Positions 2,983-23,428 of a stretch of 64,000 bases of DNA are shown here, piece after piece (position 1 is the stretch's first letter; each line of letters begins with the position of its first letter). The position numbers and the translations under genes were made by a program. The stretch comes from an uncultured Gemmatimonas sp. (GTDB lineage Bacteria; Gemmatimonadota; Gemmatimonadetes; Gemmatimonadales; GWC2-71-9). The notes beneath the pieces were generated by a model. That model was not told the origin of the DNA, ran no database searches, and saw only the letters and a program-made list of their open reading frames with translations. The stretch lies in NCBI GenBank assembly GCA_964619465.1, contig CAZUES010000001.1, positions 198,730 through 262,729 of the forward strand, in the 5' to 3' direction.

Positions 2983-5900
2983 TTACTGATCCTGTGAATC
3001 TGGACTCGCGCCGGCCGGGCGACGCCCGCGCCGGCGCTGCATCGCTTCGCGCCGGGCATCGGCCCGCGCTTGTGAGACTTCCGTAGTGGCGACGGCCGGA
3101 GCTGCGCCGCCCAAATGTTCCGCCAGCGACCGGATGGTCGGGAAGCGGAAGAGATCGGTGATCGACACCGGACGATCGATCGCGCTCCGAAGCCGCGAAT
3201 GCACTTTCACCGTCAGGAGCGAGTGTCCGCCGATATCGAAGAAATTGTCGTTGACGCCGACCTGGGGAACCCGAAGCGCTTCCTGCCAGATCGCGGCAAT
3301 GGTCTGTTCGAGTTCGCTGCCCGGCTGTACGTAGCTGGCAGCTGGTGCGGCGCTGTGGTCGGGCGCGGGCAGTGCTTTGCGGTCGATCTTGAGATTGGGC
3401 GTCCGCGGCAACCGGTCGAGGACCACGACATGGCTCGGGACCATGTACTCCGGGAGCCGCGCGCCGATGGCCTGGCGGATTTCCATCGGGTCGGGTCGCT
3501 GCCCTGTGCGGGCAACCAGATAGGCCACGATCCGTTTGTCTCCCGGAACATCTTCTCGCGCAATGACCACGGCTTCCCGTACCGTCGGGTGCTGCTCGAC
3601 GATGGCCTCGATCTCGCCCAGTTCGATCCGGTGGCCGCGAATCTTGACCTGGTGATCGAGCCGGCCGAGGAACTCGAGCTGCCCGTCCATGCGCCAGCGC
3701 ACCAGGTCGCCGGTGCGATAGACCCGGTTGCCCGGCGCCAGCGGATCGTCGATGAACCGCTCGGCCGTCAGCTCCGGACGATTCAGATAGCCGCGCACCA
3801 CGCCCGCGCCGCCGATCAGCAGTTCGCCGGCCACGCCGACGGGAACCGGTTCGAGGTTCCGATCGACCACGCGGCAGACCGTATTGGCAATCGGCGTTCC
3901 GAGCGACACCGACGTGACGCCCTGTTCCAGCCGATGGGTGGTCGACCAGATGGTCGTTTCCGTCGGACCGTACATGTTGATGACGTCACCCTGGACCAGC
4001 TGCTCCAGCTCGCCGGCCAGAGCGGGCGGGAACGCCTCGCCGCCGATCATCAGCCTGGTGAGTCCGGCAAAGCCGGGTTTGACCTCGGGCTGCGCGGCCA
4101 GCATCGCCGCCATCGACGGCGTGCACTGGAAATGGGTCACATTCCAGCGGCGGAGCTGGGCAGGAATGTCATAGTCGGCTGAGGCGCTCGCGGAGGACTC
4201 CTCCGAGCGACGGCGCAGTTCCGCGAGATCCTCCAGGCCCGCCAGGGTGTCGTCGATCGAAACCCCGAAGTCGATCAGGCAGGCAATCTCGTCGACGTCC
4301 ATGCCCTTGACCCGCTCGACCATCTCGAACGTCGTCTCGGGCGTTCCCATCAGGGCGCTGGTGTCGAAGTACCGATGGAAGGCATGGTCGAGCAGCGCCT
4401 CCATGTCCTCCTTGGTAAACTCGGCCGATCGCATGTCCTGACCCCGTCCCTCCGCCAGGCCCTTGATCAGGTCTACGGAGGTGCGCAGGTATTCTCGGAA
4501 CGGATGCCAGACCCGGGCTTTGACCTGTTCCATGTCGGGATGGACATAGGTATGGAGCATCAGGCTGACATGCCCGGCTCCCGCGTGGCCGGCTCGGCGC
4601 CAGGCCGCCCGGTACGCAGCAACCTTCTCGCGCAGAATCTCGGGGCTCTGTCCCAGCAGATGGGTCAGGATGTTGGCGCCGAGTTCTCCGGCTTTCTCGT
4701 ACGTCGCGGTGGTGCCGGCGGCGGTTACCCAGATCGGAAGTTCCGGCTGAATCGGGCGCGGCAGCGTCGTGATCGAGACATCCTTACCGGCTCCCCCCGG
4801 CATGGTAACCGCCTCGCCGCGCCAAAGGCGCCGGACGGTATCGATCATTTCCACCATGATCTCGCGCCGCCGCTCGTAGTTCTGCGGAGCAAAGACGAAA
4901 TCGCGATCGTGCCAGCCCGAGGCGAACGCCAGACCGACGCGACCGTTCGACAGGTTGTCGATCACGGCCCAGTCTTCGGCCACGCGGACGGGGCTGTGGA
5001 GCGGAAGCACCACGCTTCCCGTGCGAATCTTGATCCGCGACGTAATGGCCGCGATCGCTCCGCTCACCACCGCCGGGTTCGGGTAGAGACCGCCGAAGGC
5101 GTGGAAGTGTCGTTCGGGCGTCCAGATTGCCTCGAACCCGTTGGCGTCACCGAACTTGGCACCTTCGAGCAGCATGCGGTATCGGTCGCCGGGGGCGGCA
5201 TCGGCGGCGCTCGAGAAGTAGAAGAGGCTGAAGCCCAGCTTGCGATCCGACCGGGGAGTGCCCGTCTGCGCGCGCACTCGTTCGGGGTCGCCCTGGATCA
5301 CGACGTGGAAGCCGCGCGTCAGGGTCCAGAAGAGTTCGAGCACCGAGATGTCGAACGAGATGCTGGTGACCGCGAGCCAGGTGCCCGGCCCGTCGCCGCC
5401 GATCCGCTCGTCCATCCCGAGGAAGAAGTTGACCACGTTTCGGTGCTCGATCATGACGCCCTTGGGACGCCCGGTCGAACCCGAGGTGTAGATCACGTAG
5501 GCCAGGTCACTCGGCGCGGCGCCGCCATCCAGGTTGTCGTCCGGCAGGCGCGCAAATGACACCGCATCCAGGTCGACCCGCAGAACCTTGGCAGTCGTGG
5601 CCGGCAAGCGATCGACCAGGCGACCTTGGGTGATGATGACCGGCGCCGCGCTGTCTTCCAGCATGAAGGCGACCCGATCGGCCGGATAGGCCGGGTCCAG
5701 AGGCAGGTACGCACCTCCCGCCTTGAGGGTCGCCAGCATGCCGACCAGCATCTCGAGCGACCGCTCCGCAAAGATGCCGACCGGAACCCCGGCAGCCACG
5801 CCCAGCTCGCGGAGGCGTCGAGCCAGCCGATTCGCGCGCGTGTTGAGGTCATGGTAGCTCAGCGTCTCGTGCTCGAAGCTTGCGGCGGGCGCATCGGGCG

Positions 5901-8900
5901 TCAGCGCCACTTGGCGTTCGAACTGCGTGACCAGGGTGTCCGCGGCAGGCAGGGCTCGAACTGTGTCGTTCCAGACCCGATCGATCTGCACGTGCTCCGC
6001 CGGCGTCAGGATCCCCAGGCGCTCGATCGGCAGATCGGGTGCTCTGGCGGCTGCGCCGAGCAGCGTGACATAGTGGTTACCCAGGCGCTCGATCGTCGCT
6101 GCGTCGAACAGGTCGGTGTTGTACTCGAGATGGCCGACGTACCCCCCATCTTGCACGGCAAGCGAGAGGGTCAGGTCGAACTTGGCGGCGCCGGCGTCGA
6201 CGTCGATCTGTTCCAGGACCACGCCCGGCAGCGCCAGCGGGTGGACCGGCGTGTTCTGCAGGATGAAGAGCACCTGGAAGAGCGGTGAACGGCTCAGGTC
6301 GCGCGGCAGGTGAAGCCCCTCGACCAGGCGTTCGAATGGCAGGTCCTGATGCTGGAAGGCGCCCAGGGCCACTTCGCGAACCCGGCCGAGCAGCGTCCGG
6401 AAGCTGGGATTGCCGGCCAGGCTGGTGCGCAGCGCCAGGGTATTGACGAAGAACCCGATCAGCCCTTCCGTCTCGAGCCGGGTCCGTCCAGCCGTCGGCG
6501 ATCCGACAATGATGTCATCCTGCCCGGTGTACCGGCTGAGCATGGCCTGAAAGGCGGCCAGCAGCACCATGAACGCGGTGGCATCCTCTTCGGCGCCGAG
6601 TGTTTTGAGTCGGGCGGCGAGTTCGGTCGGAATCTCGAAACGGTGCGTCGAGCCCTTGAAGGTCTGAATAGGGGGACGCGCGCGGTCGGTCGGCAAGTCG
6701 AGTGTCGGCAGCGGTGCGGCGAGCAGACGGGTCCAATGCTCGAGCTGCCGGGCCAGGACCGATTCACTCAGCCAATCCCGCTGCCAGGCCGCGAAGTCGC
6801 CGTACTGGATCGGCAGCTCGGCCAGCGGCGAGGGTTCGCTCGACGCGTAGGCGCGGTAGAGTGCGCCGATTTCCTGATAGAGCACCCCGCGCGACCACCC
6901 GTCGGAGACGATGTGGTGCATCACGATGACCAGGAGGTGGTCGTCTGCGGACGTTTTGAGCAGCGTACCCCGAAACAGCGGTCCATTACTCAGGTCGAAC
7001 GGCTGCGAGGCAAGGTCTGCCGCGCGGCGGGTCAACGTCTCGTCGCTTGCGGGGGAGATCGTCTCGACGGCGAGGGTAAATCCATCGGCCGGTCTGACCA
7101 CCTGGCGGGCCACGCCATCGGTGCTGGGGAACGTCGTGCGCAGCGCCTCGTGACGCCGGACGATTTCCGTCAGGGTGCGTTCGAGTGCGCTCCGATCCAG
7201 TGCGCCGCGCATCCGGAATGCGGCCACCAGATTGTAGGCGGCGCTGTCCGGCTCGATCTGGTTGAGCACCCAGAGTCGTTCCTGAGCAAACGAGAGCGGG
7301 GCCGTCGTCCCCTCGGGCAGCCGGCCGATGGCGATGTCGGCCCCGCCGGATTCCTGGCCGAGTGCCACGACGGCCGCGGTCAGCGCAGCAACCGTTGGCT
7401 GCTCGAACAGTACTCTGAGCGGTGGTTCGGCGCCGAAGACGGAACGCACCCGCGCCAGCACCCGAACGGCCATCAGCGAGTGGCCGCCGATCTCGAAGAA
7501 ATGATCGTGGACGCCGACCGGAGACACTCCGATCACGTCCTCCCAGATGCGCGCCATGGCCCGCTCGGCGTCGGTCCGCGGCGCCAGGTACGCGGCGCCG
7601 TCGGCGCCGAAGGTAACGGGCAGGGACGACAGGGCGCCACGGTCGAGCTTGCCATTCGGCGTCCGGGGCAACGCAGGCAGAACCTGGAAGGCCGACGGGA
7701 CCATGTACTCCGGGACCGAACGGAGCAGGTGTTCCCGAAGCTCTCGACTGGTCGGAGCAGTGCCGTTCGAGGACGTCACGAAGGCAACCAGTGCCGTTTC
7801 GCCCTGGTGCTCGCGGGCCTGCACGGCCGCCGCCGTTACCTGCGGATGGCGCTGCAGCGTTGCTTCGACTTCTTCCACCTCGACCCGGTGGCCGCGCACT
7901 TTGAGCTGGTTGTCACGTCGCCCGGTAAAGGTGAGCAGTCCGTCCGGACGCCGAAGGCCCAGGTCGCCGGTGCGATAGAGCCGCCGCCCGACGGCCGGGT
8001 GTTCAACGAACCGCTCGGCGGTCAGATCCGGGCGATTGTGATAGCCGGGACCGACCGCAGCGCCGCCGATCCAGATCTCTCCGGCGGTACCGTCCGGCAC
8101 CGGTGAGCCCGACTCGTCCAGCAGGTGGATTTCGGTGCGCGGCAAGGGCGATCCAAGCGGAGCGACCGCGCTATCGGCCAGGAGGCTCGGGGTCAGGGTC
8201 ACGGTCGAGACGATGCCTGCCGTCTCGGTCTGTCCATACATGTTGATGAAGCGGGTCTGGCCGCCGGTGAGGGCCAGCCAGCGCTGAACCAGCGCCGATG
8301 GAAGCGGCTCGCTGGCCGACAGCGTCAGGCGCAGCGTCGAGCCTGCCAGCTGCGAGGGATCACTCTCCGCGGTTTCGATCAGGCGTGACCAGTACGACGG
8401 CACCAGGTCGATCACGGTTACCCGGGCGCGGCGGCACACCTGCAGCAGCTCCCGCGGGTCGGCAATCTCGGCGCGGCGCGCAATGACCACGCAGCCGCCC
8501 GTCAGCAGGGGCGCGAACAGCTGACGCACCGACGACGAGAAGGCCAGCGATGCGGTATGGAGGAATCGGTCCTGAGCTGCCAAACCGATCGCTTCTGTGA
8601 TGGCTGCGCTGTAATGGCTGAGGTTCCCATGAGTGATGATGACACCCTTGGGTTGGCCGGTTGAGCCCGACGTATATATCAGATAGGCTGGTGTGCCCGG
8701 TTCGACGTTTTCCGTCTCGGCTGGTTCGGCGGTGGTGGTGTCGTCGAGCAGGATTTCCCGTACGCCGGCCTCGGCCAACTCGCCGGAGCGCGCCCGGCTG
8801 GTGAGCAGGGTGGTTGCACCGGAGTCTCTCAGGATCCAGGTCATGCGGTCGCGCGGGTACGCCGGATCGAGGGGAACCCACGCTGCGCCGAGCTTCAGAA

Positions 8901-9150
8901 TTCCGAGGATTGCGGCGACCATGTCGCCGCCGCGATCGAGGTAGAGGCCGACGAAGTCACCGGACCGGACTCCGGCGGCCTTGAGTCGACCAGCTACCAG
9001 GGCCGCTCTCGCGTCGAGTTCAGCATAGGTCAACTGCTCGTCGCCCCAATGCACGGCCGACGCCCGAGATCGGGCTTCCAGTTGGGTCGCGATTACCTTG
9101 GCGACGCCGCCGGTCCACGGTTGTGCTGCAATGGGCGAAGTCGTGGTCAT
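2983..9150 (-). CDS. NRPS, A-T-C-A(interrupted by a luciferase-like monooxygenase domain)-T, 2055 aa
   Basis: Two A3 motifs (YLIYTSGSTGQPKG, YVIYTSGSTGRPKG), two carrier motifs (FFEIGGHSL, FFDIGGHSL) and C-domain HHIVSDG. LLM segment KLGFSLFYFSS...PERHFHAFGGLYPNP...GLAFASGWH at ~4215-5243. Stop is 3 bp from the PKS start. Confidence 0.96.
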   Translation of the reverse strand: MTTTSPIAAQPWTGGVAKVIATQLEARSRASAVHWGDEQLTYAELDARAALVAGRLKAAGVRSGDFVGLYLDRGGDMVAAILGILKLGAAWVPLDPAYPRDRMTWILRDSGATTLLTSRARSGELAEAGVREILLDDTTTAEPAETENVEPGTPAYLIYTSGSTGQPKGVIITHGNLSHYSAAITEAIGLAAQDRFLHTASLAFSSSVRQLFAPLLTGGCVVIARRAEIADPRELLQVCRRARVTVIDLVPSYWSRLIETAESDPSQLAGSTLRLTLSASEPLPSALVQRWLALTGGQTRFINMYGQTETAGIVSTVTLTPSLLADSAVAPLGSPLPRTEIHLLDESGSPVPDGTAGEIWIGGAAVGPGYHNRPDLTAERFVEHPAVGRRLYRTGDLGLRRPDGLLTFTGRRDNQLKVRGHRVEVEEVEATLQRHPQVTAAAVQAREHQGETALVAFVTSSNGTAPTSRELREHLLRSVPEYMVPSAFQVLPALPRTPNGKLDRGALSSLPVTFGADGAAYLAPRTDAERAMARIWEDVIGVSPVGVHDHFFEIGGHSLMAVRVLARVRSVFGAEPPLRVLFEQPTVAALTAAVVALGQESGGADIAIGRLPEGTTAPLSFAQERLWVLNQIEPDSAAYNLVAAFRMRGALDRSALERTLTEIVRRHEALRTTFPSTDGVARQVVRPADGFTLAVETISPASDETLTRRAADLASQPFDLSNGPLFRGTLLKTSADDHLLVIVMHHIVSDGWSRGVLYQEIGALYRAYASSEPSPLAELPIQYGDFAAWQRDWLSESVLARQLEHWTRLLAAPLPTLDLPTDRARPPIQTFKGSTHRFEIPTELAARLKTLGAEEDATAFMVLLAAFQAMLSRYTGQDDIIVGSPTAGRTRLETEGLIGFFVNTLALRTSLAGNPSFRTLLGRVREVALGAFQHQDLPFERLVEGLHLPRDLSRSPLFQVLFILQNTPVHPLALPGVVLEQIDVDAGAAKFDLTLSLAVQDGGYVGHLEYNTDLFDAATIERLGNHYVTLLGAAARAPDLPIERLGILTPAEHVQIDRVWNDTVRALPAADTLVTQFERQVALTPDAPAASFEHETLSYHDLNTRANRLARRLRELGVAAGVPVGIFAERSLEMLVGMLATLKAGGAYLPLDPAYPADRVAFMLEDSAAPVIITQGRLVDRLPATTAKVLRVDLDAVSFARLPDDNLDGGAAPSDLAYVIYTSGSTGRPKGVMIEHRNVVNFFLGMDERIGGDGPGTWLAVTSISFDISVLELFWTLTRGFHVVIQGDPERVRAQTGTPRSDRKLGFSLFYFSSAADAAPGDRYRMLLEGAKFGDANGFEAIWTPERHFHAFGGLYPNPAVVSGAIAAITSRIKIRTGSVVLPLHSPVRVAEDWAVIDNLSNGRVGLAFASGWHDRDFVFAPQNYERRREIMVEMIDTVRRLWRGEAVTMPGGAGKDVSITTLPRPIQPELPIWVTAAGTTATYEKAGELGANILTHLLGQSPEILREKVAAYRAAWRRAGHAGAGHVSLMLHTYVHPDMEQVKARVWHPFREYLRTSVDLIKGLAEGRGQDMRSAEFTKEDMEALLDHAFHRYFDTSALMGTPETTFEMVERVKGMDVDEIACLIDFGVSIDDTLAGLEDLAELRRRSEESSASASADYDIPAQLRRWNVTHFQCTPSMAAMLAAQPEVKPGFAGLTRLMIGGEAFPPALAGELEQLVQGDVINMYGPTETTIWSTTHRLEQGVTSVSLGTPIANTVCRVVDRNLEPVPVGVAGELLIGGAGVVRGYLNRPELTAERFIDDPLAPGNRVYRTGDLVRWRMDGQLEFLGRLDHQVKIRGHRIELGEIEAIVEQHPTVREAVVIAREDVPGDKRIVAYLVARTGQRPDPMEIRQAIGARLPEYMVPSHVVVLDRLPRTPNLKIDRKALPAPDHSAAPAASYVQPGSELEQTIAAIWQEALRVPQVGVNDNFFDIGGHSLLTVKVHSRLRSAIDRPVSITDLFRFPTIRSLAEHLGGAAPAVATTEVSQARADARREAMQRRRGRRPAGASPDSQDQ

Positions 9151-9333
9151 AGAGCCGAGCTAGAATTGCGTGTTTAGCCTGGTTTGACAGAGCTACCAGG
9201 GCGACCAGTTGTGACGAAGCAAGAATCGGGCGCATCACAGGCAACGACTTGCAGCGGCTTGGCTCGACTTGCTCTTGCGGAACAACACTTTCGTTGCATT
9301 CTAGCCGCAGGACCCCTCCGAAACATCCTTAAG

Positions 9334-9373
9334 TGTTGCGACGACGCAGCGCCACTGTTGCGCATGCGCATGG
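9334..9373. promoter_or_regulatory. Tandem TGTTGC-N4-RCGCA motif (22-bp period), candidate upstream activator site
   Basis: TGTTGCGACGACGCAGCGCCACTGTTGCGCATGCGCATGG; 27/40 identical without gaps to 20642-20681. Confidence 0.6.
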
Positions 9374-9524
9374 CGGTATATCGCTGTGGGCCTCATCCTT
9401 TTGGTCGGCGGCAACTTCGGCAGGCGAGTTGTTTCCGCCAGGTCCCGGTCTTGGTTTGCTCGGCCGGCCTGCTCGGTCCTGTGTAGGGTCCACGCGACAA
9501 CCTGGACGTCCCGGTATTGCATTA

Positions 9525-9540
9525 CGGCACTGGGTTTGCT
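9525..9540 (+). promoter_or_regulatory. Sigma54 (-24/-12) promoter of the glycosyltransferase operon
   Basis: CGGCACTGGGTTTGCT matches GGCAC-N5-TTGC with exact GG-N10-GC spacing; ATG at 9579. Confidence 0.75.
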
Positions 9541-9578
9541 CCTAGGACACCCATAATTTGATCCGAAGCCGGAAGACC

Positions 9579-9971
9579 ATGGTGCCGAGCAGTCGACGAG
9601 GGGCAGACACGGATCCTATCAAGGGTGCCCGAAGCAGGGCGCGTGTTTCTGTCGTGTTACCCTGGAGTCTCCGGGCGACCGTCGAGTCCCTTCGGCACGT
9701 CGCCCGTGTCGAACAATCCGACAGTGTTGAAGTCATCGTTGCAGGGGCGGAGTCTGTGCTGACACCGATCATCCAGGCGAACTTTCCTCCGGATTTCCGG
9801 ATCCTAACGCTACCCGGGAATCCCGACATTGCCGAGCTTCGCCGTCAGGGCGCGCTGGTCGCATCGGGAGACCTCATCAGGTTTGTCGATTTAGTCCGGA
9901 TCGATTCCGTCGTTCGCGACGGGCGCTCGTCCGAAGACAGACTCCGTAGCCTCGTACCGGAACTGGCATGA
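9579..9971 (+). CDS. Short GT2-like (GT-A N-terminal half) protein
   Basis: RVSVVLPW...EVIVAG...ELRRQGALVASGDLIRFVD resembles the N-terminal half of a GT2 fold. Stop overlaps the next ATG (ATGA). Confidence 0.55.
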   Translation: MVPSSRRGADTDPIKGARSRARVSVVLPWSLRATVESLRHVARVEQSDSVEVIVAGAESVLTPIIQANFPPDFRILTLPGNPDIAELRRQGALVASGDLIRFVDLVRIDSVVRDGRSSEDRLRSLVPELA

Positions 9972-11077
9972 GCGTCCAGCTGTCCGTGGTGATCCCGACG
10001 GGCCGAAACCCGACCAACCTGGCGCAGGTTCTTCTGGCCATCGATGCTAGTGATTTGCCACGCGACTTGTGGGAGCTGATCGTCGTCGACGATGGCGGCA
10101 CCGACGAAACCGTAGCGATTGCCGCCCCCTACGCCGACACGATTGTCCGGCTGACCGGTAAACCGCACGGCGCACCCTACGCTCGGAACCGGGGTGCCGA
10201 AGTGGCGCAGGGTGAGATCCTCGTATTTGTCGATGACGACGTCTGCGTCCGCCCGAACACGCTCAGGCGGTTTGCCCTCGCCTTTCTGGACTCGCCGGAT
10301 GTCGCGGCCGTGCATGGTTCGTTCGATGACGAGCCGTCCCGCGGATTGGTATCGCAGTATCGAGATCTGATCGACCACTACCTCCACAACGGCTCGCGCG
10401 GGGAGGCCAGCGGGTTCTGGGCCGACTGTGGCGCGGTACGGCGGGCTCCATTCTTTGCCGTCGGGATGTTCAACGAATGGCATTTCTCGCGGGAGCAGAT
10501 CGAGGCGCTCGAACTTGGTCATCGGTTGCTCGATCAGGGGTTCCGGATCGATTTCCGCTCCGAAATCGCGGCAACCCATCTCAAGCGGTGGACACTTGGG
10601 CGGATGATTGCGACCGATCTCCGCGAGCGCAGCGTTCCCCGCAGTCGCCTCCTCATGAAGCGTGGTGATGCCGCGCTCGGCCCTGCGGTTCCGGAAAAGG
10701 TCTGTGCCGTCCTCACCTGGGTCGGACTGCTGCTGGGCATTCTCTGGGTTGTCAGCGATCGTTCCGTTTTCGGTATCCTGGCAGCTGCAGCGTTCGGCGT
10801 GGTTCTCCTGCTCAACCTGCCCGTCTTCAACGTCTTTCGCCGCCGCCGTGGACTGCCGTTCACGTTGGCCGTGGCGCCGCTTCACCTGCTTCACTTCATT
10901 CTGACCGGGATTGCCCTGGTGCTCGGCGTGGTGCTTCATCACTCGGTTGGTGATCCGCAGCCATCCGCAACCGTCCAGGCATTCTCCGAGGTAGGTGTCG
11001 TGAAATGGCCTCCGGTTCCGCGCCCGGTCGATTCGGCGAGCAAACCGCCGGCGAACGGGAGCCAGAGCGGCGCCTGA
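9968..11077 (+). CDS. GT2 family glycosyltransferase with C-terminal membrane helices
   Basis: LSVVIP, VVDDGGTDET, ARNRGA, FVDDDV; hydrophobic C-terminal segments. Confidence 0.9.
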   Translation: MSVQLSVVIPTGRNPTNLAQVLLAIDASDLPRDLWELIVVDDGGTDETVAIAAPYADTIVRLTGKPHGAPYARNRGAEVAQGEILVFVDDDVCVRPNTLRRFALAFLDSPDVAAVHGSFDDEPSRGLVSQYRDLIDHYLHNGSRGEASGFWADCGAVRRAPFFAVGMFNEWHFSREQIEALELGHRLLDQGFRIDFRSEIAATHLKRWTLGRMIATDLRERSVPRSRLLMKRGDAALGPAVPEKVCAVLTWVGLLLGILWVVSDRSVFGILAAAAFGVVLLLNLPVFNVFRRRRGLPFTLAVAPLHLLHFILTGIALVLGVVLHHSVGDPQPSATVQAFSEVGVVKWPPVPRPVDSASKPPANGSQSGA

Positions 11078-11100
11078 GCGTCACGCGGGAGAGCCCCCCG

Positions 11101-12219
11101 GTGTCCAAGTCTGATGCCGATCGGTTGCTGGTGACGCACGTCGTAGCTCCGGCGCGCTCCGGTGGGCTCGAAACCGTCGTCGCGAGTCTGGCGCTAGGCA
11201 CGGCAGCTCGGGGCCATGCGGTTCGGGTCATTTCGCTGCTTGGTTCCGACGACGACTGTGAGCCATTCCTCCGACTGCCGGACGGCGGTGTTTCTCTGGA
11301 GGAGGTGCGCCTGCCGCCGCGCAGCTACCGTCGCGAAATTGCCGCCGTCCTGAAGACGCTCGCCAGCGGCGGCGCGGGTGTGGTCCATACCCACGGGTTT
11401 CACGGTAACCTGATCGGATGGCGAGCCGCTCGGCGCGCACGGAAGCCGGTGGTTGCGACGGTGCACGGCTACACCGGTGGCGGAGCCAAGGGGCGGCTCT
11501 ACGACTGGCTCGATCAGCGGATCCTGGTTCGCTTCGACGCGGTCGTTCCGGTCTCGTCTCCTCTCGAAGCCCAGTTGCGGGGTGCTGGTGTTCCGCCCGC
11601 CCGTCTGACCTTGATCCGAAATGCCAGGCCGGGGACGCGCGCTCCGCTCACGCGCGCCGAAGCGCGTGGACTGCTCGGGCTGCCGACCGATGGGATGATC
11701 GCCGGATGGATTGGGCGGCTCTCGTTTGAGAAGGGCCCGGACGGGTTTGTCGAGGTCATGCGTCGCCTGCCGGAGGTGTGGCGCGGTTCCGTGATCGGAA
11801 CCGGGCCGATGGCCGCCTCGCTTGCGGAGCAGGCGTCGGCTCAGCTGTCCGATCGCATTACCTGGCATGGGAGTGTTCCCGATGCCGGCTCACTGCTTGC
11901 TGCGTTCGATGTGGTTGCCCTCACGTCTCGGACCGAAGGCACACCGATGGTCGTGCTCGAGGCTATGGCAGCCCGGGTGCCGGTGGTGGCGACTCGGGTC
12001 GGCGGGGTTCCCGATCTGCTGGGTGACGCCGAAGGAGCCGTCGTTCCGCCGAACGATCCCGATGCCATCGCCATCGCGATCGACCGGATCCGCACCGATC
12101 CCGGATCGGCTGCGGAGCGGGTCCGGATGGCAGCGATCAAACTCGAGACGGAATTCGGCTATCCGGCCTGGGTCGAACGATACGAACAACTTTACCGCCA
12201 TCTGGCGCGTGACCTGTGA
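11101..12219 (+). CDS. GT4 family glycosyltransferase
   Basis: GGLETVV, HTHG and FDVVALTSRTEGTPMVVLEAMAARVPVVATRVGG (E-x7-E). The GTG start at 11101 is inferred. Confidence 0.92.
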   Translation: MSKSDADRLLVTHVVAPARSGGLETVVASLALGTAARGHAVRVISLLGSDDDCEPFLRLPDGGVSLEEVRLPPRSYRREIAAVLKTLASGGAGVVHTHGFHGNLIGWRAARRARKPVVATVHGYTGGGAKGRLYDWLDQRILVRFDAVVPVSSPLEAQLRGAGVPPARLTLIRNARPGTRAPLTRAEARGLLGLPTDGMIAGWIGRLSFEKGPDGFVEVMRRLPEVWRGSVIGTGPMAASLAEQASAQLSDRITWHGSVPDAGSLLAAFDVVALTSRTEGTPMVVLEAMAARVPVVATRVGGVPDLLGDAEGAVVPPNDPDAIAIAIDRIRTDPGSAAERVRMAAIKLETEFGYPAWVERYEQLYRHLARDL

Positions 12220-12226
12220 GAGGTTC

Positions 12227-13417
12227 GTGACGCTACTCGGAATCGTACTGGTCCTGTTGCCCCCGGTCATTCTCGCGGCCGCCTACTTCGGTTATCCCGC
12301 GATACTGATGATGTGTCGTAAGCTGCGTAGTGTGCCGTTGCCGCCGCCAAGCGCAGCGGAATGGCCGATGATCACGGTTGTCGTCCCGGTCTACAACGAA
12401 GCAGGGGCCATCGCGGCAACCCTTGATCGTATCCTGGCCTCCGCCTATCCCGCGGATCGGCGCCATGTACTCGTCATTTCGGACGCGTCCTCCGATGGCA
12501 CGGATGAGATCGTCCGTCGCTACGCCGATCGGGGCGTTGCTCTGGTGCGCCTGCCCAAGCGAAGCGGCAAGACGGCCGCAGAAAACGAGGCCGGTCGTCA
12601 CCTGGTCGGCGATATCGTCGTGAATATGGACGCGACCGTCGTCGTGCCACCCGAGGCTCTCCACCACCTCATTGCTGCGTTTCAGGATCCGACCGTGGGA
12701 GTGGCATCCGGGCGCGATGTCAGCATCGGCGACCGTGACCAGGAGCGCAACCAGGGGGAGTCGGGCTATGTCGGCTATGAGATGTGGGTCCGGCGCCTCG
12801 AAACCGATTGCGGGACCATCGTCGGCGCGAGCGGTTGTTTCTTTGCGATCAGACGCAGCCTCTTCGATTCGATCTTTCCGGAGGCGCTGAGTCGTGACTT
12901 TGCGTCGCCGCTGATCGCGCGCGAGCACGGCTACCGGTCGGTGTCCGTAGAAGAGGCCGTGTGCTATGTGGCCCGGACCCGGTCACTGCGGGCGGAGTAC
13001 CGTCGTAAGGTGCGGACAATGACCAGAGGGCTCGAAACCCTCTGGTACAAGCGCGGTTTGCTCAATCCGTTTCGTTTCGGACGGTTTGCGTTCTTCCTGT
13101 TTGCGCACAAGTTGCTGCGTTGGCTGGTGTTCCCCGCGCTGGTGCTGGCGGTGGTCGGTGTAGGCATCCTGACGCTCACGACGTCCTGGGGGTGGGCCCT
13201 TGCGGTACTTGGGATCCTGGCGCTCGGTGCCGGAGCCATCGGATACTACTGGCCGTCCGGTTCGACGGCTCCGCGGTTGCTGACGACCATGGCCTTTGCC
13301 GTGAGTTCGCAGGTTGCGGGGGTCAAGGCGTGGATCGGGGCGCTGCGCGGCGAACTCAATCCGGTGTGGGAACCGACCCGAAGGCCGGATCCGGTCACGC
13401 CGGGAGGTTCTGCTTGA
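12227..13417 (+). CDS. Membrane GT2 family glycosyltransferase (IcaA/CesA-like superfamily)
   Basis: N-terminal TM, VVVPVYNE, ISDASSDGT, GKTAAEN, MDAT, SGCFFAIRR, YRRKVRT, then C-terminal TMs. GTG 12227 lies 7 bp after the GT4 stop; the track's upstream extension overlaps GT4. Confidence 0.9.
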   Translation: MTLLGIVLVLLPPVILAAAYFGYPAILMMCRKLRSVPLPPPSAAEWPMITVVVPVYNEAGAIAATLDRILASAYPADRRHVLVISDASSDGTDEIVRRYADRGVALVRLPKRSGKTAAENEAGRHLVGDIVVNMDATVVVPPEALHHLIAAFQDPTVGVASGRDVSIGDRDQERNQGESGYVGYEMWVRRLETDCGTIVGASGCFFAIRRSLFDSIFPEALSRDFASPLIAREHGYRSVSVEEAVCYVARTRSLRAEYRRKVRTMTRGLETLWYKRGLLNPFRFGRFAFFLFAHKLLRWLVFPALVLAVVGVGILTLTTSWGWALAVLGILALGAGAIGYYWPSGSTAPRLLTTMAFAVSSQVAGVKAWIGALRGELNPVWEPTRRPDPVTPGGSA

Positions 13418-14039
13418 GCTCCACGCTGACGCGGCGGATCAGCTCAGCCGCCATGGCGTCGGCATCGCGCTCTTCCAATTGTCCGTCGAGCGGAAGTACG
13501 ATACGAACCAGTGCCTCTTCGGTACGGCGGGAAATCGCCGCGTCGAGCATGAGATCGAGCTTGACCCGGTACTCGTTCGATTCGGTCCGCCCGCGCCCCT
13601 GATACCAGTAATAGACCACGGCCTTCTGGTCCTTGTTGGCAACCATGAAGCGGTTGACCCGAACCGGGTCGTCGCCTTCGCGGGCGACTTCCATCGGTTG
13701 TGACGCGAGGGCTTCCCAGCCTGCACCGGGAAGGCAGTTCTTGGGCGAGTGAATCGTCTTCCCGCGTGCCTGGCTGGCGTAGTATCCAACGTACACCGAG
13801 AAATCCGGTCGATCGGATGCACGATACAATCGGAACAGGTAGTCGGTTACTCCGGCAACCCGGACCTCGTCGTCCGTCATCGTGATGTCGCTCCCCAGGA
13901 ACCCGTCGATCTGGTTAGGGAATGCGGTAAGGGGCGCGACCAGGTTCATGGTGCGCTGCATCCGGGTCGAGCCGTTGAGCAGGCACCCGACCAGCAGAAT
14001 CGTCGTGGGAACCCAGGCGGTTCGTACGGTAACGGTCAT
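13395..14039 (-). CDS. epsI: EpsI family protein (exosortase-associated)
   Basis: N-terminal TM, YVGYYASQ, IHSPKNCLPGAGW, VYYWYQ, ALVRI; directly downstream of the exosortase. Confidence 0.88.
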   Translation of the reverse strand: MTVTVRTAWVPTTILLVGCLLNGSTRMQRTMNLVAPLTAFPNQIDGFLGSDITMTDDEVRVAGVTDYLFRLYRASDRPDFSVYVGYYASQARGKTIHSPKNCLPGAGWEALASQPMEVAREGDDPVRVNRFMVANKDQKAVVYYWYQGRGRTESNEYRVKLDLMLDAAISRRTEEALVRIVLPLDGQLEERDADAMAAELIRRVSVELKQNLPA

Positions 14040-14920
14040 CCGGCCCGTCTCTTCGCGAATCGGTCTTCCAGCGACGAGATCGCCCAGGCAAACCCGCCCA
14101 GGATGCCAAAGGCAATCACAAACATGGCCCAGCCCTCGGTCATGTGCATGAATCCCTCACCGAGTTCGGGATCGACGAAAAACACCAGAAATCCGGTCAG
14201 GAAAACCCGAACGCCATTCAGAACGACCGCCACCGGAATGGCGCTCATGACCAATGCCAGTCGGGACGCCGGGTAGCGGAGCCAAAGCCCGCCGGCCAGC
14301 ACACCCAGGCTGAGCAGCGCCGTGAGAGAGCGCAGGCCGCTGCAAGCCTCCGTGACGAAAAGACGGTGCCCGGGAAGCAGAATCAGGTTGCCGTCGAGTC
14401 GAACTGGAATCTGTCGCATTTCGAGGAGCGCGGCACCGATTCGTGACGCCTGGAACTGGAGCGGCAGAGCGATGGTGCCGACCAAGACGGCTGGAAGCGG
14501 GATCGACAGCACCAGCAGGGTAAAGGGCAGCCACCAGGCTTTGAGTCGGGCCCAGCCTGCGAAGTACACCACCAGTCCCGCCAGCGCAAAGACCATGGAC
14601 ATCCGCATCGTGAAGAGCTCGGCAGCCAAGCTCGACAGATAGCGGAGTGCGACGGCTCCGCACAGAATCGCGATACCCCAGTTGCGCGCCGGCGCCAAGG
14701 CAACGCCCTGCCGGCTTTTCCAGGCGAGCCAGGCGGCGACCGGTCCGAGCAGTAGACCATGCCCGGCTTCCGGATCATTCCACCAATCGCGGAGGAGGAG
14801 GGCAAACGGCTCGGCGAACAGAATGCCGAAGGCAGCGGCGCCGAATGCGTAGGGGAGCCAGCTACCGGGGAAAACCGACTTGAGGCCCCGGCTTGCGCTC
14901 GGAGCGGCGACGCTCGTCAC
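14036..14920 (-). CDS. Exosortase (EpsH family)
   Basis: Multi-TM protein with HGLL, VTEACSGLRSL (Cys), LNGVRV (Arg) and MHMTEG (His). GTG 14920 overlaps the upstream TGA (GTGA). Confidence 0.92.
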   Translation of the reverse strand: MTSVAAPSASRGLKSVFPGSWLPYAFGAAAFGILFAEPFALLLRDWWNDPEAGHGLLLGPVAAWLAWKSRQGVALAPARNWGIAILCGAVALRYLSSLAAELFTMRMSMVFALAGLVVYFAGWARLKAWWLPFTLLVLSIPLPAVLVGTIALPLQFQASRIGAALLEMRQIPVRLDGNLILLPGHRLFVTEACSGLRSLTALLSLGVLAGGLWLRYPASRLALVMSAIPVAVVLNGVRVFLTGFLVFFVDPELGEGFMHMTEGWAMFVIAFGILGGFAWAISSLEDRFAKRRAG

Positions 14921-15702
14921 CAGCCGCCCTTGCGGAACAGGACGACCGGAATGGTTTTGAGCATGATCGCGAGATCGGTGCGGAAGCTCTGCGTCCGGAC
15001 ATACTCGAGATCGAACTGCAGCTTGCGGGCGACGTCGTCCATGTTGCGGTCGTACTGCTGGCTGACCTGGGCCAGGCCTGTGATACCGGGTCGTGCCCGC
15101 TGGCGGAGCTGATAGTCTTCCAGCTCGTCCGCCAGGCGCAGAAAGATGCTTGGACGCTCCGGCCGAGGTCCGACGACGTTCATGTCGCCCTTGAGCACGT
15201 TGAAAAGCTGCGGCAACTCGTCGAGTCGGGTCTGCCGGAGCAGACCGCCGAGCCAGGTTACCCGGGGATCCTTTTCCTTGGCCCACACCGCGCCGGTGCC
15301 GCTTTCCGCATCGACCCGCATGGTGCGGAACTTATAGATCACGAACGGACGTCCGCCCAGATCGCAGACGCGCCGCCGGCTGATCCGGAGCGGCACGTCG
15401 CCGGGCAGCCGATGATCCATGCCGATTCGGGTTTGCCGGTACAGGATCGGTCCCTTCGAAGTCAGCTTGGTCAAAACCGCGATGACGATCATGATCGGCA
15501 TCGCAATCACCAGCAAAACGATCGCAACTGCTACGTTGAGCCAGCGCCGGGTTCCCTCCACTTGAGGAACCAGCTGTTGCGCCTGCAAGGACGTGCCGCT
15601 TTCCTCCGCCTGAGTCCGACGGACAGGCTGCGGCGAACGAGGTCGCGGATTGACCGCGATGCTCGACCCGCGCAGTTCGGAGGTGCGAGGCACGGATTCC
15701 AT
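14917..15702 (-). CDS. Priming sugar (polyprenyl-phosphate glycosylphosphotransferase, WcaJ/WbaP C-terminal type)
   Basis: One TM, IYKFRTM, RQTRLDELPQLFNVLKGDMNVVGPRPE, PGITGLAQV. ATG at 15702 is coupled to the upstream TGA (TGATG). Confidence 0.93.
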   Translation of the reverse strand: MESVPRTSELRGSSIAVNPRPRSPQPVRRTQAEESGTSLQAQQLVPQVEGTRRWLNVAVAIVLLVIAMPIMIVIAVLTKLTSKGPILYRQTRIGMDHRLPGDVPLRISRRRVCDLGGRPFVIYKFRTMRVDAESGTGAVWAKEKDPRVTWLGGLLRQTRLDELPQLFNVLKGDMNVVGPRPERPSIFLRLADELEDYQLRQRARPGITGLAQVSQQYDRNMDDVARKLQFDLEYVRTQSFRTDLAIMLKTIPVVLFRKGGW

Positions 15703-16547
15703 CAAAATATCGAGATTCCCAGAACGAGGACCCCCAGCAGCAGCTGGGCCGGGAGCAACCACCGCATCATGTTCGACCCGGGAGGCAGCGCCGCGTCCAC
15801 CGATCCGCCAACGATGATTTCGTCGCCGCCGTGCAGGTTCAGATTGTCGAGCGACTGCCCGCCGGCAACGGCAGCCCGCAGCTGCTCGCGTGAGACGATT
15901 TCCCGACTGGCTCGCCGTACGATGGTCTTGTTGACATCGGACGCCATCGTCGGGCCACCGGCCGCCATGATCGCATCGCTGACCAGTCGATCAGCCGGAA
16001 GATTGTAATAGCCGGGGTTCGATACGGCGCCAAGGACGGCGAGCCGAATGTACGACGCCTGAATGAGCACCTGCGGGTTCTTGACGTACTTACCGATTTC
16101 CTTGGTAAGGTACTCGGAACTCTCCGATCGAAGCACGCCTTCGAGCGAGATCGGCGGCAGGTTGGGAAACGCCACGACGCGGCCGGGCAGGATAGTAAAA
16201 GTGCCGGTCAGGCCGGTGTCTCCGACAACCGCAACTTCGATCTGATCGCCAACCTGGAAGTCTCCCTGGACCAGGCGCTGCTGGACCATCGCGGCTTCGG
16301 CTTCCTTGGCTCGCCTGAGCGAGCCGCTGTAGCCCGTAGAGGAGGTGATCTCCCGCAACTGAACCAGGGCCGCTTCGAGCTCCGGGCGGGTTGCCTGGGC
16401 TCTGCGGACGTCGATGAGCGGGTCCTGTGCCTCGAGATGCGAGGCGGTGCCAACGATCAACCCGACAAGGGCAATCCGCACCCACCTTCGTACCCCACCT
16501 GATCGTACCCTCATCCCGAACCCTTTGGCGAAGAATCGATGTAGCAT
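15702..16547 (-). CDS. Polysaccharide export protein (Wza-like, Poly_export + SLBB)
   Basis: Signal-like N-terminus, FQVGDQIEVAV, LPPISLEG, VLGAVSNPGYY, AIMAAGG, LHGGDEIIV and a C-terminal hydrophobic helix. Confidence 0.8.
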   Translation of the reverse strand: MLHRFFAKGFGMRVRSGGVRRWVRIALVGLIVGTASHLEAQDPLIDVRRAQATRPELEAALVQLREITSSTGYSGSLRRAKEAEAAMVQQRLVQGDFQVGDQIEVAVVGDTGLTGTFTILPGRVVAFPNLPPISLEGVLRSESSEYLTKEIGKYVKNPQVLIQASYIRLAVLGAVSNPGYYNLPADRLVSDAIMAAGGPTMASDVNKTIVRRASREIVSREQLRAAVAGGQSLDNLNLHGGDEIIVGGSVDAALPPGSNMMRWLLPAQLLLGVLVLGISIF

Positions 16548-16915
16548 TGTCTGCCTCCTACAGCAGGAGTCGTGCTAACAATAGCATTCCTGGTCCAATG
16601 TCCTGACAACCCTTCTAGAATGCAAATAGCTGCACTCCCTACCGTACCAAATCACCTCGCTGTCACGAAATCGGCCAGAACCTTGCGTAATAGGGGTGAT
16701 CGGGTACGATCGGCCAGGGCTTACCGCAGGGTGACTTATGCTCGTAAGTTATTGTAAATCATATATTTCTGCTGGATTGGCCCGACAACGTTCCAATCCG
16801 GTATCCGAGCGGCATCCGGGCTGCGCTGTTGCGCGCATCCATCGATGCAGGAACCACGACGCAACAGTTGGAGGCGTCAGTGTTCGATCCGGATTCCCTC
16901 ACATGAGCCATTACA

Positions 16916-17806
16916 ATGGGTGAAACGCCCCGTACCGGCTCCCTCACGATCTTGGTTGCGAACGATCAGGAATGGGCTGCTCGCTCGCTCGAGTCGATTC
17001 TGGTCGCAGAGGGATATCGGGTGGTCCGGGCGTTCAACGGCCGCCAAGCGCTCGATCGCGCGGCAGCGAGTAGACCGGACGCCGTCATTCTCGATCTGCA
17101 GATGCCCGACTTGGACGGATTGTCTGTTTGCCAGACGCTCCGTGCCGGGCCTGACTGGCGCAGTTCTACCCCGATCTTCATAACGACGGCCGGCCCCTCG
17201 GGACGGCGGGAACGGTTTGCGGCCTATCGAGCGGGCGCATGGGAATTTTTTGGGCACCCGCTCGATGCGGAGGCCATCCTGATCAAGTTGAAGCTCTTCC
17301 TCGAGGTCCAGTCCGCGTCCGATAGCGGTCGTGAAGACGGCCTGGTCGACACCCCGTCCGGACTCTACAATCGGCGGGGTCTGCTGCGTCGAAGCACCGA
17401 ACTCGTGGCCGACGCTGCGCGGCGCAAGGAGAGAGTCAGTTGTGTCATGCTGCGTCCGACCGAACCCGTCGATGCGGCGTCTGTCGATGCTGCCGACGGC
17501 CTGGTGCGTCAGCTGGGCGAGGTGCTCCGACGGGCCGGCCGGTGTTCGGACGCGATCGGACGCCTTGGTCCGCTGCAGTTTGCGGTGCTGGCGGTTGGGG
17601 CGGGAGATGTCATGGCTACGCAGCTGGCTGATCGGGTCAACGACCTGACCGCACAAGCCGGTCTGGCGGGATCCATCGGTCGTCCGAGTCTCACCTTTGC
17701 CGCGACTCGTCACCTCGTGCCTGATGTCGGCACGATCTTCGATTTTGCCGAATCGGACACGGCAACCGATGCGCGGGGCCTGCCCCTAGGCCTTACACCA
17801 TCCTGA
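16916..17806 (+). CDS. Response regulator with degenerate GGDEF-like domain
   Basis: REC with ILDLQMPDLDG. GGDEF-like DTPSGLYNRRG...RCSDAIGRLGPLQFAV: the active site is degenerate, the RxxD site is present. Confidence 0.8.
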   Translation: MGETPRTGSLTILVANDQEWAARSLESILVAEGYRVVRAFNGRQALDRAAASRPDAVILDLQMPDLDGLSVCQTLRAGPDWRSSTPIFITTAGPSGRRERFAAYRAGAWEFFGHPLDAEAILIKLKLFLEVQSASDSGREDGLVDTPSGLYNRRGLLRRSTELVADAARRKERVSCVMLRPTEPVDAASVDAADGLVRQLGEVLRRAGRCSDAIGRLGPLQFAVLAVGAGDVMATQLADRVNDLTAQAGLAGSIGRPSLTFAATRHLVPDVGTIFDFAESDTATDARGLPLGLTPS

Positions 17807-17810
17807 AGTA

Positions 17811-17842
17811 AGGGTCGCCCCACCTACGCGGCGGCCGACCCT
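17811..17842. terminator. Possible hairpin terminator between convergent genes
   Basis: AGGGTCG (17811-17817) and CGACCCT (17836-17842) inverted repeat; no clear U-tract. Confidence 0.3.
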
Positions 17843-17860
17843 CCACGCTCCGATAGGTCC

Positions 17861-20287: not shown

Positions 20288-20348
20288 TAACGAGGTCCTC
20301 GTTGTTGACTGCCCCAGTCCAGCCTCGGGGGATCCGAGAGCAGCTTAT

Positions 20349-20364
20349 TGCAAGGTCGGTACCC
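20349..20364 (-). promoter_or_regulatory. Sigma54 (-24/-12) promoter of wzc
   Basis: Minus strand GGGTACCGACCTTGCA: GG-N10-GC with TTGCA, about 60 bp upstream of ATG 20287. Confidence 0.6.
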
Positions 20365-20641
20365 AGACGGTCAGACCGGACCTTCTCCCTTCGAGACCAT
20401 TACCTGCTGCCCAATGGCCCGCCTGACGGCAACACATCAACGCGATTGTGTAGCATTTTCGGTCCATCTGGTTGGTCAGGCCTGCCATCGACACGCACCT
20501 CTTGTGGCTAAAAACAGCACACTTTTGCAAGTTGGTGCTCTCATCTCTTCACTGTAACACGCCCGCTCCAGTTCCGGTGCACAATCTCGGCACATCGCGG
20601 AGTGTGTAGTTGTTTCATCCATCCATCACCAAAGCTATAGA

Positions 20642-20681
20642 TGTTGCTTGCACGCCGCATTATTGTTGCATGTGCGCATTG
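20642..20681. promoter_or_regulatory. Second copy of the tandem TGTTGC-N4-RCGCA motif
   Basis: TGTTGCTTGCACGCCGCATTATTGTTGCATGTGCGCATTG; same 22-bp period as 9334-9373. Confidence 0.6.
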
Positions 20682-20750
20682 GTGAAAATTGCCGGTGTTG
20701 TCAGCGACCCGCATCAAGGTCAGGAAACGGATCTAGAGCTGCTGTCTTTA

Positions 20751-20765
20751 CGGCACAGTTCTCGC
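20751..20765 (+). promoter_or_regulatory. Sigma54-like promoter upstream of the activator gene
   Basis: CGGCACAGTTCTCGC: GGCAC-N5-TCGC with correct spacing and one mismatch to TTGC. Confidence 0.45.
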
Positions 20766-20798
20766 CTGAAAGTGATGCAACCGGGCAGCGCAGAACCT

Positions 20799-22355: not shown

Positions 22356-23428
22356 GCGAACGCGGTGACGGCGCGGCCGAACTCCTCGGCATGCTGACGA
22401 CCGCGACCGAACGCGCTTCCTCGAGCTGGGATTCGATCCGCGAGGACGCGGCGTCTCCGGAGGAAGTGGCCGCCACTGCCCGTCAACTCGCCGATGGCGT
22501 GCGCCACCGGCTGTCCGGTACCGGGCCGCCGCCGCCGGTATCCGGGAGCCCGCTCAGCCGGCGGATGCTCGGCCTCCTGCGCCGGGAGTTCGTCCGCCTC
22601 AATGAAACACAGCCCCATGCCGATGCCGCCGAGTTGATCCGGATGCTGGCGGCATTCGAACGATTGAGCACCGAGCTCGAGCCGGCCTGGGATCAGCGGT
22701 TCACCGACCGTCTCTCCGGGCCGGACGGCCTGGAGCTGGTCGTCGAGGTCGCCCATGATCTCCGATCGCCGCTGACCTCGATCCTGTTCTTGGCGGAAAC
22801 GCTCAACCGGGGACGGAGCGGTCCCGTCACACCCCTGCAGGAGCGCCAGCTGGGCTTGATCTACAGCGCGGCGTTCGGCCTGAGTTCCGTAGCAAGCGAT
22901 GTGATCGAACTGGCCCGCGGCGGCGACCGGCTGGTCGACCTGGAGCCGATGCCGTTCTCGGTGGCGGATATCCTCGAGTCGGTGCGCGACATCGTCCAGC
23001 CGATTGCCGAGGAAAAGGGCCTCGAGGTCAGGGTCACCGCGCCCGCCTCCAACTCGCGACAGGGCCATCCGGTTGCCCTGAGTCGTATCCTGCTCAACTT
23101 GACGACCAACGCCCTCAAGTTCACGGACGAAGGGTTCGTCGAGATCCGAGTTGCCGAAACGAGCTCCGGCGCACTCGAGTTTTCGGTTCGTGACAGCGGG
23201 CGCGGCATCCCGGCATCTGCTATGGCTACGCTGTTCGAGCCGTTCCGCCGTCGGCAGAAGGATCGTGACTATGCCTTCTCCGGCTCGGGACTGGGCCTTT
23301 CGATCTGTCGGAAACTGGTCGAGGCGATGCAAGGTGAGCTCAAGGTCGAGACCGGTTCGACCGGGACTCGATTCTTCTTCGTGCTCGATCTGCCCAGGAT
23401 CGACGCTGAATTTGGCTTGATCGGATAA
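22352..23428 (+). CDS. Cytoplasmic histidine kinase (HisKA + HATPase_c)
   Basis: H-box VAHDLRSPLTSI, N-box LNLTTNALKFT, DSGRGI, GSGLGLSI; no TM segment. Confidence 0.92.
   Translation: MSERGDGAAELLGMLTTATERASSSWDSIREDAASPEEVAATARQLADGVRHRLSGTGPPPPVSGSPLSRRMLGLLRREFVRLNETQPHADAAELIRMLAAFERLSTELEPAWDQRFTDRLSGPDGLELVVEVAHDLRSPLTSILFLAETLNRGRSGPVTPLQERQLGLIYSAAFGLSSVASDVIELARGGDRLVDLEPMPFSVADILESVRDIVQPIAEEKGLEVRVTAPASNSRQGHPVALSRILLNLTTNALKFTDEGFVEIRVAETSSGALEFSVRDSGRGIPASAMATLFEPFRRRQKDRDYAFSGSGLGLSICRKLVEAMQGELKVETGSTGTRFFFVLDLPRIDAEFGLIG

Follow-up and report, generated by a model that had tools for sequence, protein, structure and literature searches.

A candidate enhancer box for an NtrC-family activator upstream of sigma-54 promoters in a Gemmatimonadales exopolysaccharide/exosortase cluster

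Described sigma-54 enhancers and the locus examined

At glnAp2, phosphorylated NtrC, a REC-AAA-HTH activator, forms an AAA+ oligomer nucleated by two adjacent dyads that precede a -24/-12 promoter; NtrC has its own operon among its targets and a site of the form TGCACC-N5-GGTGCA. The upstream activating sequence of NifA, a GAF-domain protein, is TGT-N10-ACA, the LuxO box is TTGCA-N3-TGCAA and the CbrB box is TGTTAC-N12-GTAACA. The described system closest in genomic setting is the "PEP-CTERM box", a conserved and sometimes repeated element tens of bases upstream of a sigma-54 promoter, ascribed to the NtrC-family response regulator PrsR, which is encoded with the kinase PrsK near exosortase and exopolysaccharide genes (Haft et al. 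2006, PMC1569441). PrsR motif 1 is 17 nt long and ends TTTACA, the box was found only in Proteobacteria, and further regulators and motifs were predicted to await discovery (PMC1569441). Our literature search found no paper on sigma-54 or exopolysaccharide regulation in Gemmatimonadota, and a search for the box motif described below returned primer-type matches only.

We analyzed a stretch of 64,000 nt (the window; C1:198730-262729) from a 4.37-Mb genome of 91 contigs and 65.6% G+C (G000), and compared it with metagenome-assembled genomes of relatives, whose contigs are labeled Gemmatimonadales or Gemmatimonadota. The source genome carries a single rpoN gene, and 11 of its genes encode a full sigma-54 interaction domain. 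Two 40-mers flagged in the window sit within an exopolysaccharide/exosortase locus, as judged from Pfam and NCBIfam matches (Table 1), and the NtrC-family response regulator encoded there is referred to below as the local activator. A second NtrC-type response regulator, bEBP2 (C1:143826-145202), lies with a kinase (145199-146461) at the far end of the cluster. The histidine kinase and WecB genes directly 3' of the local activator, on the same strand, probably form one operon with it.

Table 1. Features of the window. Scores come from an orthologue-derived matrix; distances are to the GG of the -24 element.
Feature	Position	Strand	Sequence or basis	Remarks
NRPS	2983-9150	-	Pfam/NCBIfam
Distal unit A1	9334-9351	+	TGTTGCGACGACGCAGCG	13.0 bits; left half perfect, right half GCAGCG; start 192 bp before GG
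Distal unit A2	9356-9373	+	TGTTGCGCATGCGCATGG	<9 bits; 22 bp after A1; contains palindrome TGCGCATGCGCA
Promoter-proximal degenerate dyad	9482-9499	+	TGTAGGGTCCACGCGACA	12.3 bits; start 44 bp before GG
Sigma-54 -24/-12 promoter, GT operon	9525-9540	+	CGGCACTGGGTTTGCT	kept in G006 and G001
130-aa ORF (GT operon)	9579-9971	+	Pfam, ORF list, translation	downstream of the 9525 promoter
GT2 (GT operon)	9968-11077	+	Pfam, ORF list, translation	downstream of the 9525 promoter
GT4 (GT operon)	11005-12219	+	Pfam, ORF list, translation
Second GT2 frame (GT operon)	11822-13417	+	Pfam, ORF list, translation	true start uncertain
EpsI	13395-14039	-	Pfam, NCBIfam
Exosortase	14036-15286	-	Pfam, NCBIfam
Wza-like	15702-16547	-	Pfam, NCBIfam
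Wzc-like kinase (wzc)	17861-20287	-	Pfam, NCBIfam
Sigma-54-like promoter facing wzc	20349-20364	-	GGGTACCGACCTTGCA
Weak extra site	20611-20628	+	TGTTTCATCCATCCATCA	13.9 bits; similar site at same position in G006
Unit B1	20642-20659	+	TGTTGCTTGCACGCCGCA	13.7 bits; start 110 bp before GG
Unit B2	20664-20681	+	TGTTGCATGTGCGCATTG	9.7 bits; 22 bp after B1; start 88 bp before GG
Sigma-54 promoter, activator operon	20751-20766	+	CGGCACAGTTCTCGCC
Local activator (bEBP1), NtrC-family response regulator	20799-22355	+	REC, AAA+ sigma-54 interaction domain, HTH_8
Histidine kinase	22352-23428	+	NCBIfam
WecB-type UDP-GlcNAc 2-epimerase	23432-24529	+	NCBIfam

The arrangement follows the PrsK/PrsR logic, in which a spacer separates a box from a sigma-54 promoter and an NtrC-type response regulator is encoded in an exosortase/exopolysaccharide setting, the setting being represented here by exosortase, EpsI, Wza-like and Wzc-like genes at 13395-20287. 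However, the box here is TGTTGC-N6-GCAACA rather than a 17-nt motif ending TTTACA, the host phylum is Gemmatimonadota rather than Proteobacteria, and the targets seen are glycan synthesis and export operons rather than single PEP-CTERM protein genes. Furthermore, the local activator scores 371.7 bits on TIGR02915 and bEBP2 381.7, both below the cut-off of 502.6. Equivalog membership of PrsR, AtoC, NtrX, LuxO or NtrC was rejected, all scores being below the cut-offs. The box is thus analogous to, yet distinct from, the "PEP-CTERM box" of PrsR.

The other systems supply partial parallels. As with NtrC, two adjacent dyads precede a -24/-12 promoter and the activator's own operon is among the targets, whereas the sequence, spacing and physiology differ and the window copies keep one good half-site each. 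The half-sites recall those of LuxO (TTGC...GCAA) and CbrB (TGTTAC, against TGTTGC here), and LuxO ranks with the best matches of the local activator in structure and sequence; however, the half-site spacing differs and the local activator is below both cut-offs (for LuxO, 353.8 against 800 bits). The NifA site likewise has a TGT...ACA core dyad upstream of sigma-54 promoters, but the most conserved core here is TGT-N12-ACA instead of N10, and where NifA has a GAF domain the local activator is a response regulator. By analogy, the mechanism would be that of an ordinary NtrC-type tandem enhancer, a conventional gene switch.

The 18-bp dyad and its regulon

The first-pass annotation had reported that the 40-mers at 9334-9373 (TGTTGCGACGACGCAGCGCCACTGTTGCGCATGCGCATGG) and 20642-20681 (TGTTGCTTGCACGCCGCATTATTGTTGCATGTGCGCATTG) align without gaps at 27/40, that each holds two TGTTGC units 22 bp apart, and that plus-strand -24/-12 elements stand 151 bp and 69 bp past them. 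Reading both sequences reproduced the match, the paired units (starts 9334/9356 and 20642/20664) and the two elements. As evidence in its own right, the 27/40 score was rejected: intergenic segments of the window, roughly called at ~6.6 kb and probably including some miscalled coding sequence, gave one further pair at 27/40 and seven at 26, which places the score at the top of the chance distribution and not beyond it. When chance matches were checked, it was the pairing that withstood the comparison. TGTTGC-N4-RCGC has four matches in the window, solely the flagged units, where 0.44 are expected (36 genome-wide), and the direct pair TGTTGC-N16-TGTTGC is confined to the two flagged loci when both strands of the 4.37-Mb genome are counted, two occurrences against a chance expectation of ~0.28 at one spacing.

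Motif-defined positions agree at 20/20 between the 40-mers and the remaining positions at 7/20; the likeness therefore resides in motif and register alone, and the low identity outside the motif rules out recent duplication as its origin. We also rejected the units as sigma-54 promoters in themselves, with the TTGC within TGTTGC as the -12 part, because the window copies have no GG 10 nt upstream. A search of 9000-21000 for RNA elements gave no Rfam match at E up to 1.

A genome-wide scan redefined the unit. The repeat itself stands, but its description as TGTTGC-N4-RCGC(A) gives way to an 18-bp dyad, TGTTGC-N6-GCAACA. The consensus across sites is a clear dyad, of which the window units keep the left half TGTTGC and GCA; taken singly, these units rank among coding false positives. 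The perfect dyad has four copies in the source genome. Three of them (C1:165227, 178623 and 187630) stand 11-33 kb before the window; the remaining one, on C37, is in coding-like sequence and turns up again in relatives as a match within coding DNA. A further copy matching at 17/18 positions is found at C1:146535. All four C1 sites are intergenic, and they are among the top five genome hits of a matrix built from other genomes' sites only. In 25 same-family genomes, the perfect dyad occurs 44 times and a reversed control pattern 8 times.

A -24/-12 element stands 47-69 bp downstream of the dyads at 146535, 165227 and 178623. According to Pfam, the sigma-54 promoters outside the window precede a carbamoyltransferase gene (GGCACCGAACTTGCT), a Wzy-like gene followed by SGNH and acyltransferase-3 genes (TGGCACCGGCCATGC), and a gene for a CarboxypepD_reg/TonB-type outer-membrane protein, OMP (TGGCATTGCTTCTGC). 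At the dyad pair 187630/187660, a weaker -24/-12 element read by eye, TGGACTGAAAATTGC, is 71/41 bp downstream and precedes an operon for a Wzb phosphatase and an ATP-grasp protein (Pfam). The proposal of a single regulon over several operons is thus borne out, the box recurring at sigma-54 promoters that include those of four operons outside the window. Its extent had been set too narrowly: it takes in more than two promoters and reaches ~60 kb upstream of the window. We observe the sites, their arrangement, their coupling to -24/-12 elements and their conservation in the genomes themselves, and there is good support from these comparisons for reading the 40-mers as real, weakened copies of a predicted activator-binding box used across the exopolysaccharide/exosortase cluster.

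A binder from outside the sigma-54 activators, such as a repressor or nucleoid-associated protein, would agree with one relative (G017), in which a kinase operon without an evident -24/-12 element begins close to a dyad. Such a binder is nevertheless extremely unlikely, given that four of the five best intergenic dyads fall in the cluster, three with a -24/-12 element 47-69 bp downstream and the fourth with a weaker one read by eye, and that the dyad-to--24 distance is kept across genomes.

Several further elements were seen outside the window. The right half of the 187630 dyad doubles as the -12 part of a minus-strand sigma-54-like element, TGGCAGAAGTGTTGCA, which faces a GDSL-family gene, so that box and promoter overlap at C1:187641-187656. 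At C1:181220, a sigma-54 promoter of perfect consensus, TGGCACCATGATTGCT, precedes an acyltransferase-3 gene by 63 nt. The 260 bp upstream of this promoter contain no dyad scoring at least 9 bits; either the promoter is an internal one of the Wzy operon or a different activator serves it. The OMP leader from promoter to start codon, TAGGGCAATGCCATTGTCCGGAACGAGTACCAGACATC (C1:146620-146683; locus L154 ~6620-6683), is identical in G000 and its relative G005 amid heavily diverged spacers, and may be a conserved 5' leader element. At C14:31510-31800 (locus L157 ~9510-9800), a type II thioesterase gene (PF00975) has a good sigma-54 promoter, CGGCACGGTCGTTGCC, in front of it, and upstream of that promoter are three TGTTGC-type sites of 12-16 bits, two of them copies of TGTTGCAA at a distance of 32 bp; these sites possibly tie the regulon to secondary-metabolite genes elsewhere in the genome. 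Additionally, a sigma-54 promoter at C26:44756, CGGCACACCCTTTGCC, has a 15.7-bit dyad 211 bp upstream and precedes the gene for a 3210-aa repetitive surface-type protein.

Enhancers of the activator and GT operons

For the activator gene, conservation was assessed over 72 orthologous activator loci with upstream DNA. In these regions TGTTGC/GCAACA is the most enriched hexamer, with 102 occurrences against 7.1 expected. Dyads with at most one mismatch number 23 in 20 kb of upstream DNA versus 5 in the remaining 477 kb, and a dyad of at least 12 bits lies upstream in 36/72 loci, compared with 0/72 in an equal-length coding control. Dyad starts are most often 22 bp apart (7 pairs), and one group uses 19 bp (3 pairs). 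The distances from the strongest dyad to the GG gather at 83-89 and 107-112 bp; orthologues place one dyad 106-110 bp and a second 84-88 bp before their GG, the source genome having 110 and 88. Dyads, single or paired, stand 64-110 bp before the GG in about 13 of 19 relatives; in the same relatives the dyads are at about -160/-138 from the start codon and the promoter motif GGCAC-N5-T(T/C)CGC, kept in relatives, is at about -50. Upstream of the activator gene, then, the conservation that the first-pass annotation had asked about is found, the two-dyad geometry being kept across Gemmatimonadales. Because G000 has exactly the layout of the orthologues, we regard 20642-20681 as the local degenerate version of a conserved two-site enhancer. 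The divergent wzc promoter may use the same enhancer; near-identical GGTACCGACCTTGCA occupies the corresponding position in 10 orthologous loci, and two others have looser variants.

One clade of activator orthologues (L040-L076) has no good TGTTGC dyads upstream and carries instead recurring TGTAG(C/G)-N6-(C/A)CCACG and TGTTGT-N4-GGCGCGGCA elements, the activator helix-turn-helix being unchanged. This clade suggests a looser core, TGT-N12-AC(A/G).

At the GT operon the same check had a different outcome. GT2 orthologues were found in 15/40 relatives. In the closest relative, G006, the counterpart of window 9482-9540 contains the promoter and a strong dyad, TGTTGCGTTGACGCAGCA (23.0 bits); the alignment with G000 ends upstream of that region, and a different gene, not an NRPS gene, lies there. 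In G001, TGTTGCGTTAGTCCTACG is followed by GGCATCGGCCTTGCT, adjoining a divergent carbamoyltransferase gene. The tandem at 9334-9373 is absent in G006, where the proximal site 9482-9499 is kept instead, and on sequence comparison this tandem is specific to G000. We therefore take the proximal site, which aligns with the strong dyad of G006 and with a similar site in G001, as the conserved enhancer of the 9525 promoter.

This raises the alternative that the 9334-9373 tandem is functionless, a match that arose by chance or is decaying in a rearranged stretch between genes, with 9482-9499 as the working GT enhancer. Its absence in G006, where a different gene abuts the promoter, would fit such an account, as would its low scores (13.0 and <9 bits), its start 170-192 bp from the GG compared with 41-71 bp at other target promoters, and the 27/40 similarity being within chance. 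We nevertheless consider it distinctly unlikely. TGTTGC-N16-TGTTGC is exclusive to this tandem and the conserved activator enhancer, and the two share the 22-bp register, the strand relative to the promoter and an RCGCA extension that fits the matrix. Moreover, the proximal site of G000 is itself degenerate, so that extra sites could compensate. From the uniqueness of the pair in the genome and the shared register, we infer that the 9334-9373 tandem is functional, perhaps compensating for the weakened proximal site.

The first-pass annotation had also drawn NRPS expression into the regulon, and this link was not borne out: the 9525 promoter faces the GT operon, no -24/-12 element faces the NRPS gene, and the neighboring gene differs in G006. 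A search of 9100-9620 for a sigma-70 promoter of the NRPS gene found no consensus.

Two other features of the window deserve mention. The 130-aa ORF, which has no family match, shares 4 nt with the GT2 start, and the open frame of the GT2 orthologue in relatives is 440-500 aa or more; the two may constitute one fused protein in relatives that is split in G000. At 16827-16866, TGTTGC (16827) and GCAACA (16861) form the outer halves of two would-be dyads (16827-16844 and 16849-16866) in the 22-bp register, just before a REC-GGDEF gene (16916-17806) and downstream of weak GG-N10-GC matches at 16672 and 16810. This may be a further regulon site or a chance occurrence.

Candidate activators and significance of the box

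The local activator has the domains PF00072, PF00158 and PF02954, the GAFTGA motif and the Walker A sequence GESGTGKE, and its closest structures are NtrC4, NtrC1 and LuxO. Its helix-turn-helix, ...NMSKAARLAxxDRTTLYRLMDKH, is almost invariant in ~70 orthologues, in line with the widespread box, and boxes lie directly upstream of its orthologues in 3/3 families sampled. On this evidence from sequence, the local activator is the probable binder of the box.

The main alternative keeps the same sites and regulon but assigns them to bEBP2, with the local activator as a target that has another box of its own, a cascade comparable to that from FleQ to FleSR. bEBP2 has GAFTGA and a conserved helix-turn-helix, TDRANLYRRMKRLG, with DR..LYR.M common to the local activator; it is present in 40/41 relatives, and a dyad lies before its operon at 74 bp in G000 and 57 bp in G017. 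Furthermore, orthologues of the local activator and of wzc are absent from G005 and G017, yet these relatives keep boxes that are apparently under selection. G005 matches G000 letter for letter in the two elements before the OMP gene, and the spacers between them have diverged; in G017, three perfect dyads lie within 12.5 kb, one with a near-perfect minus-strand sigma-54 promoter, GGCACCGTTCTTGC. The segment carrying wzc and the activator may, however, be missing from these two through assembly or binning loss, as both are metagenome assemblies of 95-97% completeness.

The dyad next to bEBP2 (146535) appears to belong to a different gene: it follows the divergent OMP gene, being present in 7/7 genomes with the OMP gene there and 2/10 without it (absent in 8/10). 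In 10 loci checked outside the genus, no dyad was found within ~2 kb upstream of the bEBP2 gene, although the helix-turn-helix is unchanged. Outside the genus, some of the perfect dyads stand immediately upstream of local-activator orthologues (G022, G031 and G036), and G036 has such a box and no bEBP2 match. Control by bEBP2 in place of the local activator is therefore unlikely. Co-variation of helix-turn-helix and box cannot name the binder, because both activators' helix-turn-helix motifs are nearly invariant.

It is also conceivable that both activators, or another of the 11 paralogues, read the same box, in which case two sensor kinases would feed one enhancer set. Both activator genes flank the same cluster in G000, G006 and G007, their recognition helices have some features in common, and the arrangement would account for boxes both before local-activator orthologues and in genomes that lack that activator. 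However, the two proteins are ~40% identical overall and ~38% in the helix-turn-helix (hand count), no closer to each other than to other paralogues, and we judge a box shared in this way very unlikely. More broadly, we entertain tentatively, as a minority possibility, that the box is read by two two-component sigma-54 activators at opposite ends of an 80-kb supercluster, or that a near-universal bEBP2 acts as master with a local relay; if true, this would explain the survival of the box in relatives without the local activator.

Returning to the local activator as the favored binder, the reading of the 40-mers as tandem upstream activator sites agrees with their position upstream of gene-facing -24/-12 (GG-N10-GC) promoters, with the 22-bp register and with the conserved geometry at the activator gene. 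We infer the identity of the binding protein and every biochemical step of the model that follows. Both 40-mers would be upstream activating sequences of sigma-54 promoters, built as tandem degenerate dyads. In the window, the box would serve the GT operon (9525) and the activator-kinase-WecB operon (20751), and probably wzc (20364, minus strand); outside it, the box would serve at least four more promoters. The local response regulator would be phosphorylated by the adjacent kinase, bind the boxes via its Fis-type helix-turn-helix, assemble as an AAA+ ring and contact the sigma-54 holoenzyme by DNA looping. As the copies are 22 bp apart, about two helical turns, two activator dimers would share roughly the same DNA face. 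The outcome would be activation of glycan genes and of the activator's own operon, a positive feedback. We put the probability of this whole explanation, including the local activator, at roughly 0.6.

Conceptually, the proposed element is a standard sigma-54-activator enhancer. For Gemmatimonadota, which are abundant soil bacteria, our analysis offers a concrete cis-element, TGTTGC-N6-GCAACA, together with a promoter architecture and a candidate two-component system for a very large cluster of exopolysaccharide and exosortase genes. The concept of a sigma-54 "box" linked to exosortase, described until now for proteobacterial PrsR, would thereby extend to a second phylum, in which both regulator and box are different, and the box can be used for predicting regulon members in metagenome assemblies of Gemmatimonadales.
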